Part shown: positions 520 through 54,926 of the stretch, one piece after another
Numbering within the stretch: the first letter of the stretch is position 1
Layout of the letters: each line of letters begins with the position of its first letter
Source: a virus
Taxonomy: Duplodnaviria; Caudoviricetes
DNA length: 64,000 nt
IMG/VR virus record: IMGVR_UViG_3300026165_000001
Location: 23,356 to 87,355 of that record
Direction: 5' to 3' (one strand)
Notes under the pieces: model-generated
The model's input: the letters and a program-made list of their open reading frames with translations, nothing else
Database searches by the model: none
Told to the model about the DNA's origin: nothing
Translations under genes and position numbers: made by a program

Positions 520-1626
520 ATGCCTCGCCTCTCTATGTGGAGTCCAAATAAGACCAACGACTACAAGTTCTTTGACCGCACTATCCGCGAGCAGTTTCAT
601 GTTGGCGGGACGGGGGCAATTATTCACAAGTATGTTGGTCCTGAAGATGGACAACTATCAGATGATCCTAGTCGACCTGATTATCAAAACAATAATGTTA
701 TAAACGAAACAACTATACAAGACTTGCTGTTACTTGAAAATCGTGACCGCAAGTATGACAAAGATCTATACGAATTGCGCGGCATTTATAATGTAAGCGA
801 TAACGACTTTGACCTCACACAATTTGGCCTATTCCTTACAAACGACACACTATACATGACATTCCACCTTAATGAAATGGTTGAAGTTTTGGGACGTAAA
901 CTCATGAGTGGCGACGTTATTGAGTTGCCGCATCTTATCGAACAATATGCTCTTGATGCAGACACGCCGCCCATTCCTAAATTCTATACTGTTAGTGATG
1001 GTAACAGAGGTGGTGAAGGTTTTAGTGCTACTTGGTGGCCACACATTTGGCGTGCCAAGCTTGAACCAATTACTGACAGCCAAGAGTTTGACGATATCCT
1101 AGGAAATGCAGATGATGCCGACAGTATGAAGAATGTATTCAGCACATTTGCCAAAGAAATGGATATCACTGACGCTGTAGTTGAAAGTGCTGCGGGAAAT
1201 GATCCTATTGGCGGCGCTACTCAGCTTGTAGATCATCTCTACAACTATGTCAATGAACAAGGATATAATTGGGATCCTGGCGAGACTATAGCATCAGGCG
1301 ATAATTTTCCAAGCACACCAAATCAAGGTGACTTCTACATACGCACAGATTTTCGTCCAAACCGTCTCTTTGTTTACAGGGATACACGTTGGGTGAGACT
1401 ATACGATAACATCGACGACCGCACTTGGAGCGATAGAACGTTCAATGCTTCAACCTTTGTAAATAATATCGATACAGATGTAGCCACAGGGCGAGAATAT
1501 AATTCACGCCAGAGCATTGAAGATGCGATTCGTCCACGAGCAGATTATGATGGCAACGCGGATGTTGATCTGGATGAAAGTTTTGATGTTAGTTTCAATA
1601 ACAAAGATTTTGGAAATGATCCATAA
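520..1626 (+). CDS. gp14: Neck / head-completion protein (T4 gp14-like)
   Basis: ORF 436..1626; real start likely ATG 520 (SD AAGGA, late promoter just upstream). DLLLLENRDRKY, FGLFL..DTLYMTFH and GDVIELP motifs; lies between gp13 and gp15. Confidence 0.75.
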   Translation: MPRLSMWSPNKTNDYKFFDRTIREQFHVGGTGAIIHKYVGPEDGQLSDDPSRPDYQNNNVINETTIQDLLLLENRDRKYDKDLYELRGIYNVSDNDFDLTQFGLFLTNDTLYMTFHLNEMVEVLGRKLMSGDVIELPHLIEQYALDADTPPIPKFYTVSDGNRGGEGFSATWWPHIWRAKLEPITDSQEFDDILGNADDADSMKNVFSTFAKEMDITDAVVESAAGNDPIGGATQLVDHLYNYVNEQGYNWDPGETIASGDNFPSTPNQGDFYIRTDFRPNRLFVYRDTRWVRLYDNIDDRTWSDRTFNASTFVNNIDTDVATGREYNSRQSIEDAIRPRADYDGNADVDLDESFDVSFNNKDFGNDP

Positions 1627-2978
1627 TGCAATATTTTTACGATGAACAAATAAGAAAATACCTCTTGCAATTTGTGCGAATTTTCGGAAATTTCACAGTT
1701 CAAAAAGGTTTTGATGCACAAGGAAATCCTGTTTACGAAACTGTGCCTGCGCGTTATGGTGACATGAGTAGACAAGTCGGTCATATTCTCAAAGAAAATA
1801 GCGAGAACAGTTTAAACACTGTTCCTTTCATTAGTTGCTATGTTAACAATCTTGAAATGAAACCAGATCTCCGTCGTTATCCTCAATTTGAAGAAACTCT
1901 ACAAGTAATAGAAAAAGAGTTTGATGAGGATAGCCATACCTATCTAGAAAACCCAGGCCAGAGCTATAATGTGACGCGTTACCAACCTGTGCCATATTTG
2001 CTTACCATGAACGTTGACATTTGGACCAGCAATACTGATCAAAAGCTTCAGCTTCTTGAACAAATTCTTGTCTTGTTCAATCCTGGAATCAACCTACACA
2101 CAAATCAAAACACACTGGATTGGACCAGTCTTGCATATTGTGAAATGACAAATACGACTTGGTCAAGTCGTAGTCTTCCAAGCGGAGCCGATACTGTTAT
2201 TGATGTCGCAACGCTAACATTTGAGATGCCTATCTTTATCAATCCTCCTGTCCGTGTTCAGCGTATGAATATCATCCATACTATCCTTACACAAATTCAT
2301 ACCCTAGACTTGGAAGACTTTGAAACTTGGACTGTGGACGCAATCACAGGAGATAATAGCAGCTTTGTGGTCACAACACTGGAAGATTATTGGATTCGTT
2401 TTGAAGATGGCAGCGCCTTGTTGTTACAACGCAATGGTGATGATCAAGGTGGTTTAGGCACAGTTCTAAATTGGGAGAAGGATGTGTTCAGCAATTATGG
2501 TGAATTGCGTCCTGGCATAAGTCAGATTCGTTTACGTCAGGGTGACGACGTAACAGATCCCAGTAGCGATGTAATAGGAACGATTGATTTTGATCCAAAC
2601 AATAACCAAAGATTAATAGTAAATATTGATGCAGACACTCTTCCTAACAACACACAAGGAACGGTTGACGCTATTATCAATCCACAAAATACAGGCCCGG
2701 GTGATGGCAACTTGCCCAGTGCAGTTCTTGGACAGAGATATCTTGTGCTTGACGAAGTTCCAAGTGGTGGAATTTGGGGGACCATTACAGCGGGCAAAAA
2801 CGATATTATTGAATTTAATGGTGGTTCATGGGTCGTCAGTTTTGACTCAAGTGCTAATGGTGGCACAGAATATGTAACTAATACTGCTACCGGAGATCAA
2901 TTTGAGTGGACTGGTGAGTTTTGGCAGAACAGTTATGAAGGCACTTACCGAGAAGGTTGGTGGCGTCTTTACATATAA
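1626..2978 (+). CDS. gp15: Tail sheath stabilizer / tail terminator (T4 gp15-like) with C-terminal extension
   Basis: MQYFYDEQIRKYLLQF..IFGNF, VPARYG, PVPY..MNVDIW and QLLEQILVLFNP are gp15-family hallmarks. Confidence 0.85.
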   Translation: MQYFYDEQIRKYLLQFVRIFGNFTVQKGFDAQGNPVYETVPARYGDMSRQVGHILKENSENSLNTVPFISCYVNNLEMKPDLRRYPQFEETLQVIEKEFDEDSHTYLENPGQSYNVTRYQPVPYLLTMNVDIWTSNTDQKLQLLEQILVLFNPGINLHTNQNTLDWTSLAYCEMTNTTWSSRSLPSGADTVIDVATLTFEMPIFINPPVRVQRMNIIHTILTQIHTLDLEDFETWTVDAITGDNSSFVVTTLEDYWIRFEDGSALLLQRNGDDQGGLGTVLNWEKDVFSNYGELRPGISQIRLRQGDDVTDPSSDVIGTIDFDPNNNQRLIVNIDADTLPNNTQGTVDAIINPQNTGPGDGNLPSAVLGQRYLVLDEVPSGGIWGTITAGKNDIIEFNGGSWVVSFDSSANGGTEYVTNTATGDQFEWTGEFWQNSYEGTYREGWWRLYI

Positions 2979-2981
2979 ATA
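2974..2981 (+). promoter_or_regulatory. Late promoter TATAAATA, probably leaderless for the NUDIX gene
   Basis: Perfect T4 late consensus overlapping the gp15 stop; ATG follows 5 nt later. Confidence 0.7.
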
Positions 2982-2986
2982 GACAC

Positions 2987-3435: not shown

Positions 3436-4515
3436 TTATGCTAGATCGCCTTTGATATTAACAACGTTATTGTCAATAAACTTAATCGTTACAACGCCAT
3501 ATTGACCTGCTGATTGAGTTAAGCCTCCAAGACTTAAAATAGTAACAGCTTCTGCTAGAGAAGTAAAATTTAATGCACCCGATCCTGATTGTTCGATATA
3601 AAATTCATCTCCAACTGAAAATGTGTTTGATGGAATTTCTACATCAAAAGGCAATCCACCTGAGTTATTAAGTCGTATGTATGTGCCTGCGTCAATTCCT
3701 GCAAGATTGAAAAGGAAATCAGCGGTTACATCTAGAACAGTTGGAAAACCTCCTCCTCCTCCACCACCACTTTCTATAGCAATATTCGCTTGTCCAGATC
3801 CAGCATCTGTAACCGTAACACTAGAACCTGTGAAGTTCAATGTTGATGCTGTTCCTACGATGCTCACACCATCATCTTCTACAGCAAAAGATCCACCTCC
3901 ACCCGAGGAATCAATAGTAATTGTTCCAGCACCATCATCATATGTAAGTGTGATATTTGATCCAGCAACAAGAAGATCATTTACTCGATCGTCTACTCGT
4001 TCATCTGTGTAATATAGATTGCTACCCTCAGATATTTGTGCGGTGGTTGATGGTCCATTGATTGTTAGTAGGTTAGAACCATCATCGTAACTTAATCCAA
4101 TATTTGTTCCACCAGCTAACATTGCAGCAACACGGTCGTCTACTCTTTCGTCTGTAAAATAAAGATTACTACCTTCTGCTAAATCTCCGGTATCATTACC
4201 ACTTAAATCAACATTACCATCATTTATTTGCTCCCAAACAGCGGTAACATTTGTGTTGTCCAAACAGACATATATTGCATCATTTGTTTCATCAATCCAA
4301 AAATCACCAACAGCAAATTTACCATTACCACCACTACCGTCAACATCATCGTTAACAGTGGGCGCGGCAGTTTTGCCTGTAATTTTGAATGGAACACTGT
4401 CTGATATATTATCAAAATGTGTGCGTAAATCCTCAGCGGTAATTCCGCCTGTTGCGTTCGTTGCGAACAATGTATCTGTTAATGTTCTAAAGGTGCTGTT
4501 TGAAACTTGTGCCAT
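3436..4515 (-). CDS. Fibre protein (candidate neck/collar fibre), paralog of the 47494/51422/53268 fibres
   Basis: N-terminal NATGGITAEDLR..APTVNDD..GDFWIDE..YVCLDN domain; two EGSNLY(F/Y)TDERVDDRV repeats; shared C-terminal F-x-VGD..IEQ..QYG..IKGDLA domain. Confidence 0.7.
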   Translation of the reverse strand: MAQVSNSTFRTLTDTLFATNATGGITAEDLRTHFDNISDSVPFKITGKTAAPTVNDDVDGSGGNGKFAVGDFWIDETNDAIYVCLDNTNVTAVWEQINDGNVDLSGNDTGDLAEGSNLYFTDERVDDRVAAMLAGGTNIGLSYDDGSNLLTINGPSTTAQISEGSNLYYTDERVDDRVNDLLVAGSNITLTYDDGAGTITIDSSGGGGSFAVEDDGVSIVGTASTLNFTGSSVTVTDAGSGQANIAIESGGGGGGGFPTVLDVTADFLFNLAGIDAGTYIRLNNSGGLPFDVEIPSNTFSVGDEFYIEQSGSGALNFTSLAEAVTILSLGGLTQSAGQYGVVTIKFIDNNVVNIKGDLA

Positions 4516-4589
4516 ATTTACTTACTCTTGCCTTTTCTGGATTCTATCCTGTCTTACTATCTTAATTATCTGTTTTTTCTCGTCGTGGA

Positions 4590-5174
4590 TCAATACTCTT
4601 TAATTCCGTATAAAAATCCTCGTCCAGTCATAACACTAGCTGGCATCTGGAATCTTAGATTTGTTATATCACTAGTAGTAAAGCGCATTCCGCCAAACTG
4701 ACAAAGCACTGGTCGATCACCGTTAGCAACTGTTGAGTGATAACTTCCAGCACCCACAAATCCCGTATAGGCTCCAGCCTCATTGGCATTAAAAATCAAC
4801 ATCTCTAGTCTGAGACCATCCCTTGCACCATCATTACCAATTCCTTCACCTGAAGCATTGAAGATTAAACGATTATCAACCTCAGTATATAAACTGTTTC
4901 CAGCGCCATCTCTGCTTTGGGCAATAGTTGAGTAATCACCACTCGTGCTGTCCCATGAGACTCCGTTATCTGTTGATGTTTCCATTTCAAAAACACCATC
5001 ATTTGATGCAAATACAGTATTCACGAAACGGACAACATAAACCGGATATGATCCATCTAGATTAAAGATCACACTGGTCGCAGAAAAGTTTTGTGCATCT
5101 AGTCGTATCTCAGCCGGACGATAGATTCCCTTTCCGCGGTATCGTAATTCATTAGTTCTTAGTGTTCCACTCAT
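4590..5174 (-). CDS. Putative fibre tip / adhesin subunit
   Basis: 194 aa, beta-rich, MSGTLRTNEL N-terminus, ends LYGIKEY; similar to 5860..6426. Confidence 0.55.
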   Translation of the reverse strand: MSGTLRTNELRYRGKGIYRPAEIRLDAQNFSATSVIFNLDGSYPVYVVRFVNTVFASNDGVFEMETSTDNGVSWDSTSGDYSTIAQSRDGAGNSLYTEVDNRLIFNASGEGIGNDGARDGLRLEMLIFNANEAGAYTGFVGAGSYHSTVANGDRPVLCQFGGMRFTTSDITNLRFQMPASVMTGRGFLYGIKEY

Positions 5175-5860
5175 AGGCTTTGTCCTACTCTTCCCATGTT
5201 GTTTGTTGGTTTTTGTCTCACATATAGCACAGCTCTACCTGTAATAGTCTCGTCGTTCTCTGTCATAAATGCAAATCCCACAGCGGGATTTGCAAGGGCT
5301 ACATGACTACCTCCACCACTTGGCATGACAAATACATTATCACTCCCATTAAGTTGAACTCCCATTGATGAGAATGCGAAAAATTTTCCTAGGGCCACAT
5401 AAATTTCACCACTCCATCCACCTGCTGTATCCTCATCTCGAATATCAGCCGGGTGTAGCATGGCATCGTTCTGTCCACTTCCTCCAGGGGTATCAACATC
5501 AGGGGTTCCATCAGCTTGGAGTTCGATATAACTCCAGCTCTTATTTCCATCATTAAGTATAGGGGCAAGTCGGTGACCATTAGTTCCTCTTGACAGTGGA
5601 ACCAGTTGGAATCTCCTCGCATCAACCGTTGTGTGTAGGTTAAGACAAAGTATTCTGAATTCGAATAGATTTAAGTCTTCTTCATTTGGAGTGAATCCAA
5701 ATGTCCGTTCGATTACATCAATACCATCCCACCCAGGCATTCTGGGATCACCAACAGTGCTACCAGGAAGGGACCCAAAGTCAATACTATCCACATAGGA
5801 CCAGTCCCGGTATATGCTTTCGCCGTTGCCGTCAAGAAGATCGTCAATGGTAGTTGTCAT
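5171..5860 (-). CDS. Putative fibre tip / adhesin subunit
   Basis: 229 aa; translationally coupled to both neighbours; MTTTIDDLLDGNG N-terminus, GRAVLYVRQ near the C-terminus. Confidence 0.5.
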   Translation of the reverse strand: MTTTIDDLLDGNGESIYRDWSYVDSIDFGSLPGSTVGDPRMPGWDGIDVIERTFGFTPNEEDLNLFEFRILCLNLHTTVDARRFQLVPLSRGTNGHRLAPILNDGNKSWSYIELQADGTPDVDTPGGSGQNDAMLHPADIRDEDTAGGWSGEIYVALGKFFAFSSMGVQLNGSDNVFVMPSGGGSHVALANPAVGFAFMTENDETITGRAVLYVRQKPTNNMGRVGQSL

Positions 5861-6426
5861 TAATAGTTCCTTCCATAAAGAGACATGCCTATCGAGGTTA
5901 AATCACCGCCGGGCTCATGTAAAGATACGAATGTGATCTTGGTTGAGGGATTGTAGGCGCCAGTGGCTCGGAACCTATTTGAATACAAGGCGCCACTAAA
6001 CTCAAAGTGAGTTGGTGCCGCTGCATATGGATCGAAGATGAGCGTTCTCAAGGTTTCATCACCTGAGGTGTTGCTAGATATGCTGTTTTTAATACTGTCT
6101 CCCCCAGTTGAATTAGTCCCAAAAAAAGCGCCTGTGTTATTTACACCATATGAAATATAAGAGTAATCATTTGTGGTAATCCATGTAGGGGTGCTACCAG
6201 TGTTTGTTGCTACACGGAATTCTATATCGGTCCCGAATCCTCCACTGATGGCAAAAATTTCCATCTCAAGATAATCATAGTCACCATCATATGGTTGGAT
6301 GTCAAATCCAAGATAATCAGTATTCAATTCCCCTTCACTTCCCCGGAAGAAGCTGTCAAGTAGCACTCTCTCATTCATATTGTTTCCGTCCAGATCTTGA
6401 AGTGATCCAATTTGTAATGTGCTCAT
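5860..6426 (-). CDS. Putative fibre tip / adhesin subunit
   Basis: 188 aa; strong SD GGAGG; MSTLQIGSLQDLDG N-terminus, ends SLYGRNY; directly downstream of the 1026-aa fibre. Confidence 0.55.
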   Translation of the reverse strand: MSTLQIGSLQDLDGNNMNERVLLDSFFRGSEGELNTDYLGFDIQPYDGDYDYLEMEIFAISGGFGTDIEFRVATNTGSTPTWITTNDYSYISYGVNNTGAFFGTNSTGGDSIKNSISSNTSGDETLRTLIFDPYAAAPTHFEFSGALYSNRFRATGAYNPSTKITFVSLHEPGGDLTSIGMSLYGRNY

Positions 6427-6435
6427 ATGTCCTCC

Positions 6436-9400
6436 TTAAACAATGGATAAATTTCCATTTACAGTAATGGTAGTTCCAGTAGCAATTTCAAGTGGTCCTG
6501 CTGCGCTGGCATTCTCGTTGGCATCTATGGTTACATCTGTATTGAGGACTTGCTCATTGACACGGAAGATATCTCCTGGTGCTGATCCAACTTCACCATT
6601 CTCGCCTTTGAAAAGACCGGCGCCGCCTCCGCCGCCAAGTGCGGCCCAAGAACTATTTGAATATCCTTCAAACTCATTATTTGTTGAGTTATAACGGATA
6701 TATCCATCAGCACCAGTTGGTCTTTGTGCATCTGTTCCTACAGGCAACCGGATGGCATCAGTTGCGCTGATATCAAGACTAACAGCGGGTGCACCAGTTC
6801 CAATACCAATCAAACCATCAGATTTGACAACCAATCTATTATTAGCGCCATCTGTTTGAAACTGTATATCAGCAGCATCAATGGTTCTCATTATTAGTGA
6901 GTCTGTTCCTCTATGAAACAGGCTTGTATTGCCTTCGCTGGCTCTTAGAATTCTAAATCCATAATCTGTGTAGGTAGTTCCTCCAACAAGATCGATAAAT
7001 GCATTGCCGTCGCCTGTTCTACCTTCACCGATCTGGATAAAGTGTGGTGCTGTTCCTGTGCTTCTAGTGAGATTGATGTTGTCAGCGAATGTCTTGTTGC
7101 CGCCAATTGTTTGATTGCTTGTTAAATCTACATAATCAGCTGGGTCGAATGCCTTAACTGCTGCTAGGTTGGTTACCTCACTGTCCATTAATGCTCCAGC
7201 CGCTGTAACATTGGCAGTGTCAGTTACATCAGCCAGTGCCTCTATGCCATCTAGCTTGGTGCCATCAGATGCGAGGTCTCTGCCATCAACTGTTCCACTT
7301 ACTGTGATATTGCCTGTAATATCAAGTGCGGCTCCATTGTAGGTAAGTCCGGTTGTGCCTTCAATAGTGCCATCACCAGTCCATACGCCAACTTGGTTGT
7401 CAACTGGTGTGCCTACTTTGTTTACATCCCCTCCTCCAGCAATGCTAGCCCATGTTCCATCTCCTCTCCAGTATGTTGAAGAACTCGCTCCTGTTCCACC
7501 GTTGAGGTTTGATACTGGAAGATTTCCAGTTACTTGACTTGCAAGATCAATGTTGGCATCGTTAGTGTATGTGCCAGCACCTGTCCTGCGCATAAATCCA
7601 TTTGTAGAAAAGTCACTATCCATAACAGCGCCTGCGGCTGCCACATTAACAGTATCAGTTACATCTGCTAGTGCTTCAATGCCTGCTAGCTTTGAGATGT
7701 CGCCTGCGGTTGTAAACTTATTTGTGGTAGAAGTGTCATCTAAATCATCTGGGTCCAATACCACAGCACCCGTCAATCCGTTGACACTGTCAACATCTCC
7801 GCCGGCATCAATAGTCAATGTTCCAGCCACATCGTTATATGTAAGTGTTACATTTGAGCCCGCTGTGAGTAGGCTATCAACTCTATCGTCTACTCGTTCA
7901 TCTGTATAGTAGAGATTTGTTCCTTCACTTAGATCGTCTGTATCCTTGGTCCCTAGTCTTGTATCAAAGTCTGTATTGAAAGTGTTGTAGTATGCGGGCT
8001 CTGCCCAACTTCCATCTGCTCTCAAAAAGTTGGTTGTACCTCCACCTGAGCTAGGGACAATACCACTGTTACTAATGTTGAATGTGCGCAGTAGATCAGT
8101 TGCCGCAGGGCCTGTGAGTGCTTCAATATCGCCTGTGCCACTACTGTCACGACCAAGTATGCGATTGGTAGCAATGTGCTGCATCTTGGCAAAAGTAATA
8201 GCTTGATCTGGAACGGCCACTGTGAGTGTTCCTGCCACATCATTATATGTTAAGTTAATGGCATCGCCTTCAACGAGAAGTGCTGCAACTCTATCGTCTA
8301 CTCGTTCATCTGTGTAGTAGAGATTTGTTCCTTCACTTAGATCTGTTGTAGAATTGCCACTCAAGTCTTGAAGTGCTGTGTCTGCCAAATCGCCCTGTGC
8401 TGCTGTGGCATAGTCAGCCGGATCAAATGCCTTAACTGCTGCTAGGTTGGTTACCTCACTATCCATGAGTGCCCCTGCTGATGTAACATTAGCAGTATCA
8501 GTTACATCAGCGCCAGTTTCAATACCTGCTAGTTTTGTTTGTTCGCTATCTGTAAAGGCATTTGTATTAACATTATTTTCATAAGCAGTCTTGATCTCAG
8601 CATCTGTTTGGTCTGCTGTCGCACCAGTTTCAATACCTGCTAGTTTTGAGATGTCACCTGCCGTTGTAAACTTGTTGGTTGTTGAGGTGTCATCTAGATC
8701 ATCTGGGTCCAATACCACAACACCTGTTTGTCCATTTACACTATCAACTGGAGCCGTTCCGCCTGCCGCATCAATAGTCAGTGTTCCTGACACATCATCA
8801 TATGTGAGGGTAATGTTTGTTCCACCAACCAGTAGACTGTCAACTCTATCGTCTACTCGTTCATTGGTGAAGTAAAGGTTTGTTCCCTCACTTAGATCGG
8901 TAGTTGAACTACCTGAAAGATCCTGTAGTGCTGTGTCTGCCAAATCGCCCTGTGCGGCAGTAGCATAGTCAGCCGGATCAAATGCCTTGACATCAGCTAG
9001 ATTTGTTACTTCGCTGTCCATTAGGGCACCTGCTGATGTAACATTGGCAGTATCAGTCACATCTGCTAGTGCTTCCACTCCTGCTAGTTTTGTTTGTTCA
9101 GCATCAGTAAAGGCATTGGTATCAGCATTATTTTCATAAGCAGTCTTTATCTCTGCATCTGTTTGATCGGCAGTTGCGCCTGCTTCCACTCCTGCTAGCT
9201 TTGAGATGTCGCTTGCGGTTGTAAACTTGTTGGTTGTTGAGGTGTCATCTAGATCATCTGGATCCAATACCACAACACCTGTTTGTCCATTTACACTGTC
9301 AACGTCTCCGCCACTTCCTCCCCCGATCGCGCCCCAGCCTGAGTTATATCCTTCAAACTGACCAAGGTCAGAATTGAAACGTATCATACCATCAACACCA

Positions 9401-9516
9401 GATGGTCGATTACCTGTTGTGCCTACTGGTAACTTGACAGCACCTAGAATATCGAATGTGAGTGTCTCGTCTTCAGTTGAGATCAGGTTACCATTATGAT
9501 TTAAATTAATTGGCAT
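6436..9516 (-). CDS. Long repetitive fibre protein (1026 aa)
   Basis: LPVGT..RP..G.IR(F/Y)N..FEGY motifs at both ends, VDSVNG(Q/L)TG and EGTNLYYTDERVDDRV repeats, C-terminal NENASAAGPLEIATGTTITV domain. Confidence 0.8.
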   Translation of the reverse strand: MPINLNHNGNLISTEDETLTFDILGAVKLPVGTTGNRPSGVDGMIRFNSDLGQFEGYNSGWGAIGGGSGGDVDSVNGQTGVVVLDPDDLDDTSTTNKFTTASDISKLAGVEAGATADQTDAEIKTAYENNADTNAFTDAEQTKLAGVEALADVTDTANVTSAGALMDSEVTNLADVKAFDPADYATAAQGDLADTALQDLSGSSTTDLSEGTNLYFTNERVDDRVDSLLVGGTNITLTYDDVSGTLTIDAAGGTAPVDSVNGQTGVVVLDPDDLDDTSTTNKFTTAGDISKLAGIETGATADQTDAEIKTAYENNVNTNAFTDSEQTKLAGIETGADVTDTANVTSAGALMDSEVTNLAAVKAFDPADYATAAQGDLADTALQDLSGNSTTDLSEGTNLYYTDERVDDRVAALLVEGDAINLTYNDVAGTLTVAVPDQAITFAKMQHIATNRILGRDSSGTGDIEALTGPAATDLLRTFNISNSGIVPSSGGGTTNFLRADGSWAEPAYYNTFNTDFDTRLGTKDTDDLSEGTNLYYTDERVDDRVDSLLTAGSNVTLTYNDVAGTLTIDAGGDVDSVNGLTGAVVLDPDDLDDTSTTNKFTTAGDISKLAGIEALADVTDTVNVAAAGAVMDSDFSTNGFMRRTGAGTYTNDANIDLASQVTGNLPVSNLNGGTGASSSTYWRGDGTWASIAGGGDVNKVGTPVDNQVGVWTGDGTIEGTTGLTYNGAALDITGNITVSGTVDGRDLASDGTKLDGIEALADVTDTANVTAAGALMDSEVTNLAAVKAFDPADYVDLTSNQTIGGNKTFADNINLTRSTGTAPHFIQIGEGRTGDGNAFIDLVGGTTYTDYGFRILRASEGNTSLFHRGTDSLIMRTIDAADIQFQTDGANNRLVVKSDGLIGIGTGAPAVSLDISATDAIRLPVGTDAQRPTGADGYIRYNSTNNEFEGYSNSSWAALGGGGGAGLFKGENGEVGSAPGDIFRVNEQVLNTDVTIDANENASAAGPLEIATGTTITVNGNLSIV
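8230..9300 (-). repeat. Internal ~555-bp (185-aa) tandem duplication in the fibre gene; further partial copies near 7140-7260 and 7640-7940
   Basis: GTTTGTCCATTTACACT starts at 9281 and at 8726 (period 555); near-identical protein blocks. Confidence 0.9.
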
Positions 9517-34200: not shown

Positions 34201-34669
34201 AAAAGAATCAGAACGCCCAGAAACCCCAACCGAAGTGGAATTGGAAAAACAATTTGCGGCACTAGATTCCAAGAAAGCAATTAGTGATTCAATTGTTTAT
34301 CGAGCAGCAGAATACAAGGTGTTGTTCGGTGAATTGGCTGATTTGGAATTGCAAGGTAAGTTTAAGATCGTGAAAGTTTCTGGAACAACATTGACAGACA
34401 ATGAAATCAAGTCAAGAGTATTAACTGCAATTCAAAATTTCTTTGATATCAATAATTGGGATTTTGGTGAGACGTTCTACTTTACAGAGTTGAGCGCCTA
34501 TATTCACCAACAACTTCCTGGTGTCATTAGCAGTGTGGTTTTGGTTCCATTGGCAACCAACAGTCAATTTGGTGACTTATTCCAGATCGGACCAGACAGC
34601 AATGAATTGTTTATTCCAGACGTAACACTAACTGATATCGAAATTGTCGATTCATTGAATTCAATATAA
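31244..34669 (+). CDS. gp6: Baseplate wedge subunit (gp6-like)
   Basis: YDYDTIR..L, ENFNDW..SSE, ENFL.TA.RR.SV, FGDG.F, QDRMITASDY; GxGY-repeat insert near 33050-33250. Confidence 0.9.
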   Translation: MAQSIRQRNLFAAEDYRLVYDSFKQANFQAYDYDTIRGALVDYIQQQYPENFNDWIQSSEFVALIETLAFLAHSLAFRIDQAGRENFLSTAERRASVLRIADFLGYTPTRHQPARGHLKVTGIRTTQDVFDINGDSLKNQTIDFEDSYQNFLLVMNEVLSATNKFGRPNNSIRIGNVKNDIYTTNISNNRNIVFDIQGEVNGVRRGFEVHGTNINRSTNTLVESEPDPTGSFNIVYKNDGQGLGSNDTGFFVGFKQGTLQFNDITADEAVSNLLIDLGATNVNNSDIWVQSINDSGEIVNSWTKVDSGFGANTVFNNIRQDNRKLYSVKTVDEDNVNIIFGDGVFSEIPRGIIRIWYRTGINQTYTLDPDDIGTVTFGFNYDSPDNNTYKVTFTCELQDPVTNASSAETITSIKNNAGRVFAAQDRMITASDYSVYPLTVSENIRKIKAINRTYTGHSRFIRAQDPTATYQSVDLVFDDGYIYSEGLTYRTNLALPSNLSVDQIYYRFIDEAISNPEVINLFYSKYEDVSVDFNNVSTSYEWQQITSGYRGSTGYLTRGSVIQKIGSNATNDLNDARPGSIVEFVESPYNSGTLGEPGDSLTIINAGSGYTSAPTVTIRGTGTGAEATATINGGQISGVTLTAGGAGYQNPVVVEITGGGGSGAAAVARAQSAAKTWARVVDVVSDGQGINDSNGNPTGLTSRGQGAVVLNKVIPNTARVSRVFPAYKTQFSDEERNNILDELANLNSFGLRYDETASEWKIIRSGDLPTTDENNPDNFSFENAGDLSNSNNDHSWIMRVNYSASRWEFISRRQRFVYGSDEKIRFFNQNGKRRFNVETNKPERDAIVVSRINTKPNGSLFPLEEDLTFFAYRYFTEPDGYTDNRKVIVTLADVDNDNYPDNPLAFKTLSGNNNIALGTVTEDGNEYTVRTETGTEVPGRSNLTATWRRISTSRYRIDPSLSNIIDVFVLNQNYDTKYREWIADSRKESERPETPTEVELEKQFAALDSKKAISDSIVYRAAEYKVLFGELADLELQGKFKIVKVSGTTLTDNEIKSRVLTAIQNFFDINNWDFGETFYFTELSAYIHQQLPGVISSVVLVPLATNSQFGDLFQIGPDSNELFIPDVTLTDIEIVDSLNSI

Positions 34670-34678
34670 GGTAAATTG

Positions 34679-45838: not shown

Positions 45839-47494
45839 ATGGCAGTAAATACCCTTAATGAATTGATAACACTCCTTAATGCAGCTGATACTGATGCATC
45901 TGCCTTGGCTGCTATTACAAATGATTCTGCTACTTCAACTGATAGCAGCACAACTCCAGGATATGTCGATACAAGACTTAATGACGATCCTGTCAAAAAT
46001 GTCCGCAAAGTTATAGCTGATATTGAAAATGGTATTACAACCAATGTCCGTCCAGCAGTTCATGAGGAAGGCGTTGAAGTTCTAAATAATCCAGCAATTA
46101 TCAATTTTGTTGGTGACAATATCACAGTAACAGATGGCGGAAGCAATACCGCATTGATTACAGTTTCTAGTGTTGGCGCAGTTGGAACACCAGTTGACAA
46201 CCAAGTTGGTGTGTGGACTGGTGACGACACATTAGAAGGCACATCAGAGCTTACCTTTAATGGATCAACGCTAACGATTACCAATGACTCTGGACCTGCA
46301 TTGAGTATTGTAGATTCAAATGACTCAGTAACATTCCTACAACAAATTGTCAACCCTGGAACACCAGCAGTTCAAATCGGAACCACAACAGCACACAACT
46401 TAGAATTTCGTGTTGATGGATCAACACACATGACTCTAGACACCTCTGGAGATCTAAACGTTACAGGTAATATCACTGTGGGTGGTACAGTTGAAGGTGT
46501 AGATATTGCTAATGCTGTAACCAAAGTAGCAACACCAGCAGATAATCAAATTGGTGTTTGGACTGGAGATGGAACCTTGGAAGGGGACGCTAACCTAACA
46601 TGGGATGGAACCGCTCTAGATATTACTGGTGATATAACAGTTAGTGGAACAGTTGATGGTGTAGATATTGCTAATGCTGTAACCAAAGTAGGCACGCCTG
46701 CGGATAACCAAATCGGTGTATGGACTGGTGATGGCACTATCGAAGGAGATGCCAACCTAACATGGGATGGTGCACTTCTAGTCATTGGCGGTACAGATGC
46801 ATTGCAGGTTCCTGACGGCACCACAGCGGAACGTCCAGGGTCGCCCGCCGCTGGTATGATTCGTTATAACACAGACAACGGAAACTTTGAAGGCTACTCG
46901 ACCACATGGGAGCCACTTGTATCGCCTACCCAAGCAGTCAACACACAAGCAGGAGCCAGTTATAGCCCAACATTAGATGATAATGGTGCTCTTATTGTAA
47001 TGACAAGTGCATCGGCCAATGACGTGTTTATTGGTAGATCCACAGTGATTTCAGATACAATTACTGGAATTACCAATGCAGCAAGTGCAGTCGTAACAAC
47101 CACAGGCGATAACTCCGTTGAGGTCGATGTCGGAGACGAAGTTACAATAACCAACGTCGTTGGAATGACAGAATTGAATGGAAATACATATGAAATTACA
47201 GCCATTAGTGGTAATGATGTTACTATTAATGTAGACTCATCTGGTTTTGGAACATATTCAAGTGGTGGAGATGCCGATTTCTTGCCAGAAATTGCGTATC
47301 CGATTGGATATAAAATTGATATTATTCAAGCAAGTATCGGAACAACTTCAATCCAAATGGATCCAGGTGTTGGATTGAGAGGGATGGCCTCAACACCATC
47401 AGGAACTAGCAGAGATGTCGGCGCTATTGGTGAAGTTGTAACCATAATTCAATATGATGAAGACAGCTGGGGCGTTCAAGGAGACACAGTTTAA
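45839..47494 (+). CDS. Tail fibre protein
   Basis: Three TP(V/A)DNQ(V/I)GVWTGD repeats (162-bp period for the last two), [13 protein letters not shown] motif, FCCH-like insert in the C-terminal domain. Confidence 0.75.
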
Positions 47495-49527
47495 TGGCAC
47501 AAGTTGATAGAACAACATTTTTATCTAATACATCCACACTCTATCCTGACAACACAACGGGATTGATTTCTCCTCAGGACTTGCGAGCTCAGATGGATAA
47601 TATTGCTGATTCATCGCCATTCATGGCAACAGGCCAGAATTCAGCACCCAGTGTCAACGATGACTCGACTGGCACCGCAGGTAATGGAGCATTTGATCCA
47701 GGCGATATATGGATAGATGAAACAAACGACGCAGCATATATCTGTGCTGATAATACTGATACTGCCGCTGTTTGGCTTGCTCTATCGGATCCATCAGTTG
47801 TTACTAAAACTGGAACACCAAGTGGTGGTGAGATTGCTCTTTGGGATTCAGATGGAGTTATTGAAGCAAGTTCTACGTTATCAGTTGATTCCAATCGATT
47901 TGTTTTTGAATCCGCTAATCCAGTTATCGACATTGTCGAGAGCGATGGTGCAGCTGATAATCAGCGTTGGTGGTTCTGGGGTTCGGGTGAAGATTTGCGT
48001 ATTGCTCCAGTAACAGATTCAGGAAGTGCTAGCGGAAAATACATTGCTCTGAAAAGAACAGGAAGCGACTTTGACAGTTTAGATATCACACAGTCAACAG
48101 CTACAAGAACAAGCATTAGTCAAAATAGCATTGAATTCAGCATTGCTGATTCAACAATACAAACAACCGATACAACCAGCCTGTTGCTTGGAGTGGATGG
48201 AACATCACGCCTTCGCATTAATGCAGCAAACAACGATGTTGATATATTGGGTGTCGGAACCGGAAATCAGTCTTTCAATGTTGGCAACTCAGCCACTACA
48301 ACAGGGGATACTGCCGTTCAGATTGGTGTTGGAAGAACTGATGACGGCAATGCATACATTGATTTAGCTGGTGATACAACATATACTGATTTCGGTCTGA
48401 GAATGATCCGTAACAGCGGTGAAAACGGAATCTCCCGTATAGCACACCGTGGCACAGGAAACTTTAGCTTCCAAAGCCAAGACGGTGGAGCCTTTGAATT
48501 TTCAGGCGGCGTATTTAATATCGCTCATTCAACTGCAACGCTATCACTAGCTGATACAGATGCTGTGAGTGGTGGCATTGCTAGTATTTCTGCTGGATTA
48601 ACTGGTAATCTCATAATGCAAGCTGACCCTACTGATGTCGAGGCAGGCAGTTATATTTCATACGAAGTTGATAACCTTGAAGTAATGCGTGTTGTCAATG
48701 GCAATGTTGGTATCGGCGAAACCAGCCCACAAGTTAATCTACACATTAGTTCAACCTTCCCCAAGATTCGTTTTGATGACACAGATGTCAGCGGAGCGTC
48801 ATATGTTGGCCCTGAAGGGTCAGTCATGCGTATTGAAGCAGATTCAACAAATGTTGATTCAAACAGTGCGGTTGGTGTATTTGTTGATGGTGGACAAATT
48901 GGACTATTCAACTCAACTGGTCTTGAAATAACCGGAGCACTTTTTGGTGCAACCCAAACACAGGCCGAGACAACAGGAACCTTCCGTCGTATTCGCACAA
49001 CAGAAAGCGGATATAGTTATGAAATGAATAATGCTGGCGCTAATACAATTGAAATACTCGGTGATAAAGATTTTTCCATAACAGGCGCAACACAGGCCAA
49101 TCCAGTGGTAATTACAGTATCAGATACTACTGAATTGGAAACAGGTGACACTGTTGATATTTCAAGTGTAGGCGGCATGACTGAATTGAACGGCAACACA
49201 TACGCAATCACAGTTCTTGATGGAACAACATTCAGTCTTCAAGACTCAGGCACTGGTGCAGATATAGACGGAACCGGATTTACGGCATATACAAGTGGCG
49301 GCACAGCAACCCGTAACGCGCTTGTTTATCCAGACGGGTTTTATTGTGAAATTATACAAACTGGAGCCGGAACAACCACAGTTCAAGCAGGCACTTCTAT
49401 TGGATTAAACGGCACTTCTGGTGGCGGCGGTGATGTTTCGACTCAATATGGTGTAGTTAGATTGAGAAAGACGTCTGGTGGAACAGATCAATGGGTTGCT
49501 GACGGAGATATTGGAGCAATTTCATAA
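47494..49527 (+). CDS. Tail fibre protein
   Basis: [14 protein letters not shown]-terminal domain, [10 protein letters not shown] beta repeats, FCCH-like insert, ends [11 protein letters not shown]. Confidence 0.75.
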
Positions 49528-51413
49528 TGGCAAGACAAGCAATTGGGGTAGGAACAACCGCGAACGACGGAACAGGCGATCCACTTCGCGACGCGCTTAT
49601 CAAAGTAAACAACATGACAACCGAACTCTATACTGCACTAGGGGACGGTAGTAGCATACAATTCAATACATATACAATTCGAAATTCTACAAATGCGGCC
49701 GCAGCCGCCGCGCTTGATAATGGAACAGTTGTCACTATAGATAGTCTTCTCTATCTAGTTGATAATACTGCAACAGGATCAGACAGTGCAACAAATGATT
49801 TAAGTGTTGATGGATTGTTACCATTTGGAGATATTTTTTACGAGCATTTTGGTGCGCGAGGAGATGGTGTTACAGATGATACTGCGGCAATGAACGCAGC
49901 AATTGATTATTATAGAAATTTGATCGATACAGGAACTGATAGAGATAATTCAGCAGTTTTAAGAGGGCGGTCAAACGCTATATATGTAATTAGTGGAACT
50001 GGTCTTAATATGACTGGTTTTGGTTCTGTTGGTGCCACTTTTGACTTTACAGGAACACGTATTAATGCAGCAACCAGTGGCGAAGCTGTTGTTGACATGT
50101 TAGATAGCCGCTGGTGTGTAGTTCGTAATCTTTACATCACAACCACTGGAACATGTAAAAGCGGCGTAATGATTGGACGCAAAGACTCAGGTTCTGCTGA
50201 TCGCCATACCTTTGAAAACCTTCGTATATATGGAGATTTCAGTGTCGCATGTTTAACGAATTATCGTTCAGAACAAAATGTGTTTATTCAGGCTGAATTG
50301 ATTAATAATGCAGCTATAGCAGACTCTCGTGCATTAATTGTTGACGGAAATGATACATCATACACATCAGACCACGTCTCTGTTGCTGGTGTTTCAGGAA
50401 CAACAAATGAAAACCGTTTCCTTGGAGGAAGTTTTATTCACCGAGCAGATCTTCAAGGAGATGCTGTTTATATAACCGGCTGCCAAAAATTAGAAATGCA
50501 CAAAAGCTTTGTTGCTGCTCGTCATACTGCCGCAATCGTTATTGATCTTGATGGATCAGCAGGCTGTGCTGCTCTTGATCTTGACGTCCATATTGAATCT
50601 TTTCTTGGTGGAGCGGGAATTGATTATTGCTTTGAATTCCGTGGCACAGGCAATGTAGTTTTGGATGGATTTAGATATCGTGATCATCGTCATCATGCTG
50701 ATCTTGCTGTTTTCTATCGTAACGGACCATCTACTATTACTATCACAGATTTCCGTGTAGAGATTTTTGACGCGGTTGATACAGGTACCCCAATTTTTGA
50801 CAGTGTGGCTGAATGGAAATTAGAAGGACAACTTTTATGCAGCGGAAATGCTGTCATTGATACAGATATCAAATTGGCCGGACATATGAGAGATGACACA
50901 ACAGTGATTAATCGATTTGGTCCTCTTAGCCTGGTAGACACCATGGCATTTTCATCTGACGATGATGTCGCTCAGTTCTTTGCACCCACTGGTGCAAAAG
51001 GAATAACAATCAGTAACGCATTGAGACCACGAATTTCTTTTGGTGATGAATTAGATGCGAATCGTGCTTCTATCGATTACAATGTAGATGCTGATTTGTT
51101 GACAATTCAATGGGAAGACGGCACCCAAGCTATGGTTATCCGTGATTCTTACTTTGGCCCAAGCACAGGCACTGCTAACACACAGGACCTTGCCCGAGGC
51201 AGTTTTCGATTTAACGACGGATACTTTGCGGGCCGCCTTTACCATTCAGCAACTGGAAGTAACACTATTTCAATCAGCGGTGGAACCGGATCTCCAGAAA
51301 GCGTTGTCACGGCGGCACAAGGAAGTCTATATACCAGAACCGACGGAGGTGCGGGCACCACCCTCTACGTCAAGGAGAGCGGTACCGGGAACACCGGCTG
51401 GGTTGCAAAGTAA
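49527..51413 (+). CDS. Tailspike / depolymerase with gp9/gp10-type N-terminus
   Basis: [27 protein letters not shown]; FGARGDGVTDDTAA pectate-lyase-like beta-helix start; C-terminal GSPE.VVTA..GSLY.RTDGG..TLYVKESGTGNTGWVAK. Confidence 0.8.
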   Translation: MARQAIGVGTTANDGTGDPLRDALIKVNNMTTELYTALGDGSSIQFNTYTIRNSTNAAAAAALDNGTVVTIDSLLYLVDNTATGSDSATNDLSVDGLLPFGDIFYEHFGARGDGVTDDTAAMNAAIDYYRNLIDTGTDRDNSAVLRGRSNAIYVISGTGLNMTGFGSVGATFDFTGTRINAATSGEAVVDMLDSRWCVVRNLYITTTGTCKSGVMIGRKDSGSADRHTFENLRIYGDFSVACLTNYRSEQNVFIQAELINNAAIADSRALIVDGNDTSYTSDHVSVAGVSGTTNENRFLGGSFIHRADLQGDAVYITGCQKLEMHKSFVAARHTAAIVIDLDGSAGCAALDLDVHIESFLGGAGIDYCFEFRGTGNVVLDGFRYRDHRHHADLAVFYRNGPSTITITDFRVEIFDAVDTGTPIFDSVAEWKLEGQLLCSGNAVIDTDIKLAGHMRDDTTVINRFGPLSLVDTMAFSSDDDVAQFFAPTGAKGITISNALRPRISFGDELDANRASIDYNVDADLLTIQWEDGTQAMVIRDSYFGPSTGTANTQDLARGSFRFNDGYFAGRLYHSATGSNTISISGGTGSPESVVTAAQGSLYTRTDGGAGTTLYVKESGTGNTGWVAK

Positions 51414-52630: not shown

Positions 52631-53244
52631 TGAGTATTTTTCTGCATAGAGCAGGCTTGCTTAATATAAATGTTGGCGGTGGTGGCGGAGCCGCCACACG
52701 ATCTGTCCTATTTACTGATAATTTTAACCGCGCTAACCAAACATTACAAACAAGTGCAGACTGGACAAAAAATACTGTTGATGATGATGCAAATATTTCT
52801 AGTAATGTATTAGAGGGAACCCCGGCTGGTTTTCCAGCAGATGAATACATTGCAACAGTTAACAGCATTAGTCCAAACAATGATCAATATGTTGAATTTG
52901 AAGTTGCTACAAGTGGAGGTTTCCTAGAATTCGGTGGAGTCGTTGCTCGGTTTACAGATACAGACAACTTTTATGGACTACGTGAAGAAGGGGGTGATCT
53001 TGTCTTGATTTTAAGAGTGACGGCCCTCGGCCAAGGTGCCCTATGGACTTACTCTAGTGATTCTGGCAGTGTTAGTCCAGGAGATGTTTGCTCTCTTGAA
53101 ATTGTAGGAACCACATTGAAAGTTTTTGTCAACGGTGTAGAAGTTTATCAAAGAATAGATACAGATCACTCCAGTGGAGATGTTGGTGTGTGGTTTGAAG
53201 GACCAGTCCAAATTGATAATTTCGAGGCCGGAAATATGGTATAA
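52630..53244 (+). CDS. Fibre tip adhesin with lectin-like (ConA-type) beta-sandwich
   Basis: ATG 52630 coupled to the upstream TAA; Gly linker, FTDNFNRAN, LKVFVNG..D..HSSG.VG..IDNF. Confidence 0.6.
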   Translation: MSIFLHRAGLLNINVGGGGGAATRSVLFTDNFNRANQTLQTSADWTKNTVDDDANISSNVLEGTPAGFPADEYIATVNSISPNNDQYVEFEVATSGGFLEFGGVVARFTDTDNFYGLREEGGDLVLILRVTALGQGALWTYSSDSGSVSPGDVCSLEIVGTTLKVFVNGVEVYQRIDTDHSSGDVGVWFEGPVQIDNFEAGNMV

Positions 53245-53247
53245 ATA
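53240..53247 (+). promoter_or_regulatory. Late promoter TATAAATA
   Basis: Perfect consensus overlapping the stop codon, upstream of SD GAGGA. Confidence 0.75.
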
Positions 53248-53267
53248 TACGAATAGAGGACAACACG

Positions 53268-54926
53268 ATGACACAAGTTGACAAGACCACATTTAAATCA
53301 TCCACTACATCGCTTTTCGCTGATAATACCACTGGCGAGATCGGTGCTGGTGACCTTCGTTTCCAGATGGATAACTTGGCTGACAGTGTTATATTTAAAA
53401 AAACAAACCAAACAACAAATCCAACAGTAAATGATGATGATAACAATACATCTGGTAATGGTGTATTTGAAATTGGCGATATTTGGGTCAACTCAACATT
53501 AGAAACAACTTGGATTTGTGTTGATAATTCAACTGGCGCGGCAAATTGGGATCCGCTCACATTTGATACATCAGGCTTTGCTAGTATTTTTGGCGCGCCT
53601 GCAGACAATCGAATCGCTGTGTGGCGCACAGCTACACAAATTGAATCATCATCAGATTTAACCTGGGATGGCAGCACCCTTGATGTTACTGGAGATATCA
53701 CTGTTAGTGGTAATATAAATGGTAAAGATATCGTAGCTATTAGTGATACTGTTGACAGTCTGTCACCAAGTGCAATTGATGATATTGCTATTACTCAAAC
53801 ACCAGTGGGTGGCGGCGCCGCATCTGGTTGGGACGCAACAGGCCTCAACTTCAGTATTGGTGATGGTTTAGCTATTAGTCAAAATGGAACCACCACCAAT
53901 ATCCGAATTGACAATAACAACATTACAAATGATACATCTACAAGAACACTAGGACCCAATGATAACAATTCATTTGTTACTAACCGAGGCGCCACTGGCA
54001 GTGTTATTTGGACATTGCCTTTAACATCAGCATTGGAGAGTGTCGGCCCAAGATTGGTTACAACATTTATCAAAGTTGCAAATCAGTCCATGCAGATTAT
54101 TGGTGCAGTGGGTGTTAGCATAAACGGACTGACTGAATCAGGCTCAAATGAAAGCTTGATTGAAATTTGTCCAAGCCAATACTTTAGTCACGCAACAGTT
54201 GTGTGGTCTGGAATTACAAATTCATATTATGTCTATTCAGGTTCAAATGTTGTGCGAAGCGGATCAGTTAGCGATGATCAATTTGCTGTCTGGTCAAATA
54301 GTGGACAAACACTGGGCGGTTATGCTAATCTTACATATGATAATACCGATCTTGTTCTTGAAAATGCTAATAGTTTTGATATTAGCGGAACAGCGCCAGA
54401 TTTAATAATGACCAGCACCAATAGTGGAACAGGAACGACCAATCTAACGGCAACTGATGCAGATTTTATTATTGATGTTGATCCAGGCACATTGATTGGT
54501 AGCTCAAGATTTCTTCTCAATATCGATGGCTCAACCATTATCCAATCGGACTCCACTGACGTTTCCATTGGTGCTGATGTTGATGTAACTGGCTCAGTGA
54601 AATATGATTGGACAATCACAGATGATGCTACTGCATCATATACACTTGTATTGGCTGATCGCGGCACCGTCCGCACTATGAGTAGTGGATCAGCAAATAC
54701 CTTGACTATTCCTGCAAATGCTAGCGTGGCATTCCCAATAGGAACAATGATACGTGTCATTCAAATTGGCGCCGGAACCACTAGTATCACAGGTGATACT
54801 GGCGTCACATTGAACGGTGTAAGTGCAGGTAGCGGAGATGTCTCAGCACAATGGGATGAAGTTCGACTATACAAAGTCGCAACAGATGAATGGTATGCAA
54901 CAGGTGATATTGGAGCAGTTGCTTAA
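53268..54926 (+). CDS. Tail fibre protein
   Basis: DNTTGEIGAGDLR N-terminal domain; IPANASVAFPIGT..WYATGDIGAVA C-terminal domain. Confidence 0.75.
   Translation: MTQVDKTTFKSSTTSLFADNTTGEIGAGDLRFQMDNLADSVIFKKTNQTTNPTVNDDDNNTSGNGVFEIGDIWVNSTLETTWICVDNSTGAANWDPLTFDTSGFASIFGAPADNRIAVWRTATQIESSSDLTWDGSTLDVTGDITVSGNINGKDIVAISDTVDSLSPSAIDDIAITQTPVGGGAASGWDATGLNFSIGDGLAISQNGTTTNIRIDNNNITNDTSTRTLGPNDNNSFVTNRGATGSVIWTLPLTSALESVGPRLVTTFIKVANQSMQIIGAVGVSINGLTESGSNESLIEICPSQYFSHATVVWSGITNSYYVYSGSNVVRSGSVSDDQFAVWSNSGQTLGGYANLTYDNTDLVLENANSFDISGTAPDLIMTSTNSGTGTTNLTATDADFIIDVDPGTLIGSSRFLLNIDGSTIIQSDSTDVSIGADVDVTGSVKYDWTITDDATASYTLVLADRGTVRTMSSGSANTLTIPANASVAFPIGTMIRVIQIGAGTTSITGDTGVTLNGVSAGSGDVSAQWDEVRLYKVATDEWYATGDIGAVA

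Follow-up and report, generated by a model that had tools for sequence, protein, structure and literature searches.

Where each fibre sits on a phage with many fibres is known for few cultured models, and in those the placement is achieved by folded adaptor domains. The receptor-binding proteins TSP1-4 of CBA120 and gp528-534 of RaK2 are described as modular, with N-terminal anchors and gp10-like XD domains (PMC10253068); conserved N-terminal anchors and XD docking domains are already known. In T4, the acidic C-terminus of gp14 grips gp15, and fibritin binds domain III of gp13, not gp14 (PMC12929629). In this work we analyzed a 64,000-nucleotide stretch of DNA from an uncultured T4-like jumbo myovirus, bases 23356-87355 of the 87,355-base viral metagenome record IMGVR_UViG_3300026165_000001 (CheckV completeness about 24%), hereafter the window. 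Its subject is a set of short peptides with three regularly spaced aromatic residues, here called triplets, in one neck protein and in one giant baseplate protein. The original prediction for this DNA had proposed that four such peptides are sockets for four fibres sharing one N-terminal domain (the N-domain), one peptide for each fibre.

As shown below, the motif is real, it takes the form of a triplet, it is placed in tails or insertions, and it is linked to fibre genes. Binding, the N-domain as the partner and the geometry of the contact are what we infer. We consider it reasonably likely that the triplets dock to some partner, whichever protein that may be; the narrower proposal that they are docking tags for fibres, with the N-domain as partner, we put forward more tentatively, as a serious possibility.

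Triplets in neck-protein tails and in a giant protein

The first triplet-bearing protein lies in the gp14 position, between a gp13-like gene on the other strand and a gp15-like gene (Table 1). The upstream open reading frame (ORF) belongs to PHROG 211 'head-tail adaptor Ad2', a label also borne by T4 gp13. The listed ORF of the gp14-position protein begins at a GTG at 436, and we used the ATG at 520 throughout. Comparison with T4 gp14 by hhalign, using a 12-sequence profile, gave a probability of 0.8% (E 0.074); no Pfam family scored above its cut-off, and neither the single sequence nor the profile had a sequence match in the PDB. The second protein, a giant of 3709 amino acids (aa) directly 3' of the gp6-like gene, occupies the gp7 position; PHROG and Pfam scans gave no match to a gp7 model, a direct comparison with T4 gp7 not having been made. 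The names gp14 and gp7, which had been assigned to these proteins earlier, express gene order only: the order fits, and sequence similarity to T4 gp14 was not detected.

The four peptides translate exactly where they had been placed (Table 1). Peptide 1, in the acidic tail of the gp14-position protein, has three Phe residues at spacings of 4 and 5, and the other three are sites 1 to 3 of the giant protein. When motifs were counted in 83 non-overlapping ORFs of the window (28,065 aa) against 200 shuffles, the strict pattern FxxxFxxxF had three matches (shuffle mean 2.29; 39% of shuffles reach three), the third, overlooked before, being at residues 100-108 of the ORF 49527-51413 (49824-49850). 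The only pattern that covers all four peptides, F-x(3-4)-[FY]-x(3-4)-F, had 14 matches with 16.5 expected. A count at the shuffle level means that, on this genome alone, the finding would be chance. Also, one look-alike, at residues 99-108 of the fibre 53268-54926, is not conserved in five orthologues. Both observations favor the explanation that the triplets are aromatic residues that happened to fall in low-complexity linkers rich in Gly, Ser and Asp.

The homologues argue against this explanation. The gp14-position family has more than 8000 homologues, and its conserved part ends with ...RQSIxDAIxP followed by about 5-12 mostly acidic residues, where most homologues stop. Among the best 120 of these more than 8000 homologues, 104 could be anchored, and they gave 25 tails of at least 20 aa, 23 of them non-identical. 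In these 23 tails, aromatic residues are found four apart 21 times and five apart 22 times, with 5.9 and 5.6 expected from shuffles (43 vs 11.5 for both gaps together), and gaps of three (3 vs 7.1) and of six (2 vs 5.0) are depleted. Runs of exactly three aromatics at spacings of 4-5 occur 19 times against 0.83 expected, the independent origins being fewer than 19 since kindred tails are counted repeatedly; runs of two (5 vs 7.25) and of four or more (0 vs 0.07) show no such excess. One tail carries four triplets in a row and another carries three. The tails comprise a Phe type and a Trp/Tyr type, both with period 4, a Tyr type with period 5 and a longer type ending in W-x-x-x-F, and some Phe-type tails are almost copies of site 1 or site 2 of the giant protein. 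The same motif, then, recurs in several unlike tail families and in two unrelated proteins, the latter being hard to reconcile with chance.

The tails also bear on another explanation, in which the tail corresponds, in modified form, to the C-terminal hook of T4 gp14 and holds on to gp15 or the sheath, the loops of the giant protein serve internal packing, and fibres are not involved. Residues 212-245 of T4 gp14 are acidic, disordered before tail joining, and embrace gp15 (PMC12929629), and the window tail is likewise acidic. However, the conserved part of the family ends before the triplet, and most homologues have gp15 without having the extension. Moreover, the tails carry from 0 to 4 copies of the motif, which would be odd for a fixed 6:6 interface, and homology to T4 gp14 was not detectable. 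We regard a modified hook as very unlikely.

The giant protein was compared with four full-length IMG/VR homologues (G001, G002, G003 and G006), all about equally distant from each other at 58-64% identity, and with a wider set of 26 homologues of 3534-3875 aa. Site 1 lies in a stretch that is inserted or deleted between homologues, and its triplet was read in 18 of the 26 homologues in the alignment. Site 2 keeps its aromatics in the five aligned proteins despite a local identity of about 0.35, and was read in 23 of the 26. Site 3 has the form G-F-x-x-G-F-x-x-G-F-x-G, the Gly and Phe residues being invariant in six of six close homologues (one of them partial) and the x positions variable. 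All 23 loops that could be anchored among the 26 homologues hold a period-4 triplet at site 3, two of them in two copies, and three homologues have an extra copy about 110 residues upstream. Four distant homologues (L095, L096, L097 and L122) pass from ...NGERIEY to ...RGTxGT without the stretch of about 18 residues with site 3, in all four readable loops; therefore, site 3 is an insertion, as the original prediction had guessed. Its wider claim that the peptides sit in apparent tails or inserts is borne out in the homologues for both the neck-protein tail and the giant-protein insertion. With the tails so far from their shuffles and site 3 present in every anchored loop, the chance reading is disfavoured, and we judge it highly improbable. 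By their shortness, their location in tails, loops or indels, the retention of key residues, their recurrence in unrelated proteins and their varying copy number, the triplets have the appearance of short linear motifs.

Fibre modules and their linkage to the triplets

That four fibres share one N-terminal domain was confirmed by tblastn and alignment; the domain comprises 99 aa. With the first 104 aa of the ORF 3436-4515 as query, tblastn against the entire record gave exactly four places, each of them inside the window (E 2.7e-68, 2.4e-34, 9.6e-29 and 1.2e-25). The copies are 45-55% identical across 100 columns, 30 of which are invariant, and since the record is about 24% complete, the genome has at least these four. 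The N-domain profile aligns its positions 1-99 to residues 1-99 in dozens of proteins of 180-1061 aa among its 150 best matches (of 2948). Fibre anchors usually have this layout, in which a conserved module opens proteins whose remaining parts differ, as is also the case for the four window paralogs, and the arrangement suggests such a role for the N-domain. In cultured phages, the search for the N-domain returned only a 32-aa partial match in three roseophage records.

The N-domain model, with a predicted local distance difference test (pLDDT) of 88.8 (mean 65.9 for the model of the whole 359-aa fibre), shows two helices forming a hairpin (residues 6-16 and 27-40) and, after them, a small beta module (residues 44-97). 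Searches for fold relatives gave no Foldseek match at E <= 0.001 and a best VIA-align Z of 4.8, none reaching 5. Two likenesses of the beta half were set aside: the collagen XV trimerisation domain (Z 4.2, root-mean-square deviation (rmsd) 2.6, 45 aligned residues) is too weak a match, and a resemblance of residues 46-99 to CBM5/12, noted by eye, found no match to Pfam PF02839 at E <= 0.01 in any of the four fibres.

At their other end, these fibres have a C-terminal domain (C-domain) of about 100 aa in common, and they share internal repeat units as well; the first reading of the sequence had not seen these features, nor that a fifth gene, 45839-47494, has the C-domain behind a different N-terminus. 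In the 359-aa fibre (residues 257-359), the C-domain resembles the Pa223 capsid spike 9ny6_C (Z 8.5, rmsd 2.6, 95 aligned), the KP1 baseplate protein 9f4a (Z 8.1, rmsd 2.6, 92 aligned) and, in its gp10-like region, residues 79-181 of CBA120 TSP4, 7rej_A (Z 7.1, rmsd 2.9, 93 aligned). These top matches are all parts of phage fibres or baseplates, in a Z range that is common for models without a clear match; T4 gp9 (1qex) appears among the Foldseek rows only at E 0.69. The resemblance to docking platforms of branched fibres keeps another arrangement in play, in which the fibres form chains or branches as in CBA120 and RaK2, the N-domain of one resting on the gp9/gp10-like C-domain of another, and the triplets are linkers or structural loops. 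In its favor, T4 gp10-like XD domains are known docking platforms of branched fibres (PMC10253068), and the C-domain, matched to phage structures at Z 7.1-8.5, is present on every N-domain fibre of the window. Such Z values are nevertheless unremarkable, and chaining leaves the periodicity of the triplets, their variation in copy number and the linkage of tail and fibre unexplained. In addition, the C-domain occurs in two of four records that have neither the N-domain nor the site-3 insertion. We therefore think that chained fibres are quite unlikely to account for the triplets.

Some other features of these proteins can be recorded here. A related record (G003) encodes three small proteins of 128-175 aa that consist of little beyond the C-domain (G003:C1:19027-19554, 53981-54424 and 58488-58874), one of them directly 3' of the giant gene. 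A unit of about 65 aa matching Pfam E1_FCCH (E 1e-9 to 1e-12) is found in the giant protein (window 36851-37027), in the ORF 45839-47494 (47084-47269) and in the 677-aa fibre (49099-49311); in G002 and G003 it is located towards the C-terminal end of the giant protein too. This unit comes and goes between homologues, and residues 701-800 of the giant protein show 9% identity across relatives. The 1026-aa fibre (6436-9516, minus strand) has a Tyr/Phe triplet of period 4 at residue 509, the partial look-alike mentioned in the original prediction, and a nearly identical segment of about 40 aa (...LPVGT...RP.G.DG.IR.NS....FEGY...W...GGG) near its N-terminus and again near its C-terminus.

An association of tails with fibre genes was seen in a second clade, whose gp14-position proteins are about 55-60% identical to that of the window. 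It comprises 86 loci (L203-L282, L031-33 and L129-131), a count that retains loci too short to show the next gene, and the gp15-like gene directly follows the gp14-position gene in most of them. Where the tail carries a Tyr-type triplet, the next gene opens with one N-terminal module of about 35 aa in 8 of 8 loci, with five distinct tails. The module follows the gp14-position gene in 4 of the 78 other loci of the clade, and was found nowhere else in the loci examined. The genes that carry it (examples in Table 1) are fibre-like, encode 96-792 aa and have 13 invariant columns in the module alignment. Helix 2 of the N-domain was likened to this module by eye; hhalign gave a probability of 0.07%, and we treat the two as different modules. 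The giant protein was not found on the five second-clade fragments searched.

In the clade of the window, among loci with a flank of at least 4 kilobases (kb), the N-domain is encoded near the neck genes in two of three with a Phe-type triplet tail (the window and L020) and near the gp14-position gene in none of 54 others. G001, which is collinear with the window, has neither the tail nor the cassette 3436-9516, its capsid gene coming directly after the NUDIX gene; G006, L024/L026 and L128 likewise have no tail. The N-domain is present in all six records whose giant protein carries the site-3 insertion, and in none of the four whose giant protein was read without it, three of these being 100% complete. 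The C-domain is found in two of those four, and so it does not track the motif.

A candidate docking function

Our findings suggest a mechanism in which the triplets would act as short linear docking tags, placed on the flexible C-terminal tail of the gp14-position neck protein, with further tags in insertions or exposed loops of the giant baseplate protein in the gp7 position. A tag would consist of three aromatics, 4 apart in the Phe type or 5 apart in the Tyr type, within a sequence rich in Gly, Ser, Asp and Asn, and each tag would recruit an accessory fibre to the virion. The likeliest partner in this phage would be the 99-aa N-terminal module of the four fibres, probably bound by tags of the Phe type. 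Tag and fibre gene would be gained or lost jointly, as a cassette, and the copy number of the tag would vary. As for the geometry, if the peptide formed an extended helix with three residues to the turn, aromatics spaced by 4 would be rotated +120 degrees from one to the next, those spaced by 5 would be rotated -120 degrees, and spacings of 3 or 6 would give 0 degrees. Such a helix fits the enriched gaps of 4 and 5 and the depleted gaps of 3 and 6, and it fits one peptide lying on a three-fold axis. A single peptide on the axis of a putative fibre trimer could then offer one aromatic to each subunit.

The identity of the partner is a separate question. Co-folding of an N-domain trimer with a peptide, a check that had been proposed from the start, was carried out for the site-3 segment, with three N-domains (residues 1-135) and an 81-aa segment around the site, in three runs and with three controls. 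The median score was 0.40 (0.26, 0.45 and 0.40) against 0.02 for the best control, with contacts agreeing by at least 68% and a partner pLDDT of at least 54, which places the result in the class 'weak support', where a pass is wrong in the majority of cases if the guess had no high prior likelihood. In the calibration, 58 of 80 solved complexes passed the mark, as did 2 of 110 mismatched pairs; the passes with scores of up to 0.60 were only 7 of the 80 solved complexes and both of these mismatches. The prediction yields no interface, and for that reason the score may come from the conserved flanks of the segment and not from the triplet.

It could be, then, that the tags dock and that their partner is another fibre type (the paralog at 45839, the 1026-aa fibre or the spike with a gp10-type N-terminus), the stowed distal end of a fibre, or a decoration protein. 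The motif statistics and the cassette linkage are silent on which protein binds. The neck cassette of the window has five genes and not just the N-domain fibre, the L020 cassette also has three unrelated small ORFs, and tails of the W-x-x-x-F type accompany cassettes without an N-domain in the visible flank. On the other hand, the N-domain alone among the modules follows the site-3 insertion from record to record, which the C-domain does not. The co-folding of the N-domain gave a score of the weak class, 0.40 against 0.02, and in the second clade the gene beside the tail always opens with one N-module. Another partner seems doubtful to us.

Several observations weigh against fibre docking through the N-domain, in addition to those already given on the co-folding result. 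The T4 precedent is one, in that the gp14 C-terminus serves gp15 there. The beta module that makes up the second half of the N-domain is a unit repeated elsewhere, up to 23 times in one protein; this half is consequently no specific plug by itself, and it is the hairpin that is special to N-termini. Besides the N-domain fibres, no fewer than three fibre or spike genes of the window begin with other N-termini, namely those of the 1026-aa fibre, the gp10-N spike and the 45839 type, and these need attachment points too. The association itself has exceptions: L029 has a triplet tail and no N-domain within its 5.9 kb flank, and L129-131 and L216 have the fibre module of about 35 aa without a triplet tail. 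The contrast of presence and absence across records divides one clade from distant phages, and is close to a single evolutionary event. Likewise, as tail and fibre gene adjoin, co-inheritance by linkage alone would yield the same association. Aromatics are generally well conserved in the giant protein (75% overall and 55% in stretches of low identity), so that conservation of its sites alone is weak evidence, about 0.07 by our own multiplication. Finally, runs of 4, 4 and 5 aromatics in three giant proteins (P0284, P0294 and P0290) depart from the rule of exactly three.

The counting argument of the original prediction, in which four peptides were set against four paralogs, one in the neck and three after the wedge gene, did not hold. 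The peptides are not enriched in the window, as described above, and the match of numbers has no statistical power. The match of locations is loose, given that the 'neck' paralog is on the opposite strand, at the end of a cassette running down from the major capsid gene, and that the three 'wedge' paralogs alternate with three other genes (45839-47494, 49527-51413 and 52594-53244). Across collinear records, the triplet sites of the giant protein and the N-domain genes right after its gene number 3 and 3 in the window, 2 and 2 in G001, 2 and 2 in G006, and 3 and 2 in G002; by a simple permutation of our own, three matches in four records are expected about half the time, and the proposed count correlation gains no support. 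A metagenome scan gave only contigs of up to 80 kb in the close clade, so that complete close genomes do not enter these counts. The rearranged G003 has three sites and a triplet tail with two dispersed N-domain genes, on a record that is 25% complete, and a tail with three copies is followed by only one gene with a cognate N-module. These two cases and the unequal G002 also count against the docking proposal. The uneven counts, the three-copy tail with its single gene and the fibres with other N-termini leave a code of one peptide for one paralog unsupported. If the tags bind fibres, it is more likely that copy number sets the valency.

A broader view would be that marine jumbo T4-like phages have an addressable tag system, in which a peptide of 9-13 residues with three aromatics, inserted in any exposed virion protein or added to its end, threads the axis of a trimeric fibre N-terminus and offers each subunit one aromatic. 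The class of the tag may pair with the class of the N-module, the Phe type of period 4 with the 99-aa N-domain and the Tyr type of period 5 with the module of about 35 aa, and copy number would set the fibres per site. Fibres could in this way be added, moved or multiplied through small insertions and a linked fibre gene. We consider so general a system unlikely on present evidence. If true, a peptide-sized tag of variable copy number would be a much simpler route to gain or multiply fibres, and it would help to explain the quick turnover of fibre cassettes among uncultured marine jumbo phages. It would also give a rule for annotation, whereby a triplet tail on a neck protein predicts an adjacent neck fibre gene.

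Gene setting and comparison with known systems

The window carries a T4-type structural module, in which PHROG and Pfam scans recognized genes for the portal, protease, scaffold and major capsid proteins, and also for a gp13-like adaptor, a gp15-like terminator, a gp5-like hub and gp25-like and gp6-like wedge proteins. The gp6-like gene is followed by the gene of the giant protein and then by several fibre genes (Table 1). The cassette downstream of the major capsid gene encodes two fibres, the 1026-aa one and the 359-aa one with the N-domain, along with ORFs of 188, 229 and 194 aa. Among the genes after the giant, the tailspike-like one combines a T4 gp9/gp10-type N-terminus with a pectate-lyase-like segment; the collinear stretch of G001 has no homologue of it, nor was one found in the remaining relatives that were compared. 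A NUDIX hydrolase gene (window 2957-3430) lies directly 3' of the gp15-like gene and is kept there in most relatives of both clades, which is unusual among genes for neck and tail. At its end (62600-64000), the window has an ORF with weak radical-SAM PHROG matches, and in G001 (G001:C1:115449-140000) its counterpart is followed by at least seven more ORFs with 21-33% identity to it, which form a large array of paralogs downstream of the tail genes.

The nearest cultured phages are distant jumbo myoviruses. The DNA of the capsid region is 68-70% identical to the Rak2/121Q/CBB group over about 27% of the query, and the gp14-position protein is at most 39% identical to its cultured relatives, which include SCTP-2, Atu_ph07, PA5oct and the Rak2 group. 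The C-terminal part of the giant protein had zero matches among 50,697 phage records.

Table 1. Genes, domains and triplet sites considered in this work (window positions unless a locus is named).
Feature	Position	Strand	Remarks
Virion protein in gp14 position, 368 aa from ATG 520	520..1626	+	PHROG 11591 'virion structural protein', E 5e-84
C-terminal tail with peptide 1 (1582-1614)	1537..1623	+	beyond the conserved ...RQSIxDAIxP end
gp15-like tail sheath stabiliser / tail terminator	1626..2978	+	Pfam T4-gp15_tss, E 1.8e-24
Accessory fibre cassette downstream of major capsid gene	3436..9516	-	absent in G001
N-domain fibre, 359 aa	3436..4515	-	N-domain 4219-4515; C-terminal beta-sandwich domain about 3439-3747
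gp6-like baseplate wedge protein	31244..34669	+	PHROG 10646, E 1e-282; PHROG 219
Giant virion protein, 3709 aa, gp7 position	34676..45805	+	PHROG 10938 'virion structural protein', E 1e-247
Site 1, period-4 aromatic triplet in indel	35933..35959	+	3/5 aligned homologues
Site 2, period-4 aromatic triplet	35987..36013	+	all three positions aromatic, 5/5
Site-3 insertion, about 18-25 aa	45296..45379	+	within conserved ...NGERIxY / RGTxGT domain; site 3 = 45344-45370
Fibre paralog, different N-terminal module and shared C-domain	45839..47494	+	sequence comparison
N-domain fibre, 677 aa	47494..49527	+	N-domain 47494-47790
Tailspike-like protein	49527..51413	+	Pfam T4_gp9_10_N, E 3.8e-5, just under its cut-off
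N-domain fibre, 402 aa	51422..52630	+	N-domain 51422-51718
N-domain fibre, 552 aa	53268..54926	+	N-domain 53268-53564
Genes with the ~35-aa module, among others	L031:6684-8600, L204:6999-7598, L221:5639-8017, L223:9159-11099, L129:4235-4756		directly after gp14-position gene

An aromatic-triplet tag on neck or baseplate proteins was not found described under general literature terms for fibre attachment and the neck, a motif of this kind being unsearchable as a pattern. The window shares with CBA120 and RaK2 (PMC10253068) the presence of several fibres with conserved N-terminal modules and divergent downstream parts, a putative gp9/gp10-like beta-sandwich, and one gene with a T4 gp9/gp10-type N-terminus. 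The socket in those phages is a folded XD domain of a fibre or baseplate protein, whereas the one proposed here would be a triplet of 9-13 residues that a neck or baseplate protein carries in a tail or loop; moreover, the N-domain of the window has no detectable fold relative.

With the T4 neck, the window shares the order of a gp13-like gene, the gp14 position and a gp15-like gene. As would be the case here, T4 keeps a trimeric fibre at its neck through a small, otherwise flexible part of a neck protein; unlike in the arrangement proposed here, that part is a folded insertion domain of gp13 and not a tail of gp14 (PMC12929629). The window protein, furthermore, has no sequence similarity to T4 gp14, and the window fibres were not fibritin-like in the searches made.

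The principle of the original prediction, by which one polypeptide with three repeated motifs meets a three-fold symmetric partner, has a parallel in the PAAR / T4 gp5.4 cap, a folded cone that sits on the beta-helix tip of the trimeric gp5-VgrG spike. Here, in contrast, the element would be an unfolded peptide offering single aromatic side chains, and homology is not implied. In adenovirus, a short aromatic-containing motif of the fibre tail binds the penton base across a symmetry mismatch. The peptide there is on the fibre, so that the polarity is reversed, and adenovirus is a eukaryotic virus unrelated to this phage; what the two would have in common is a short aromatic peptide as the means of attaching a trimeric fibre.

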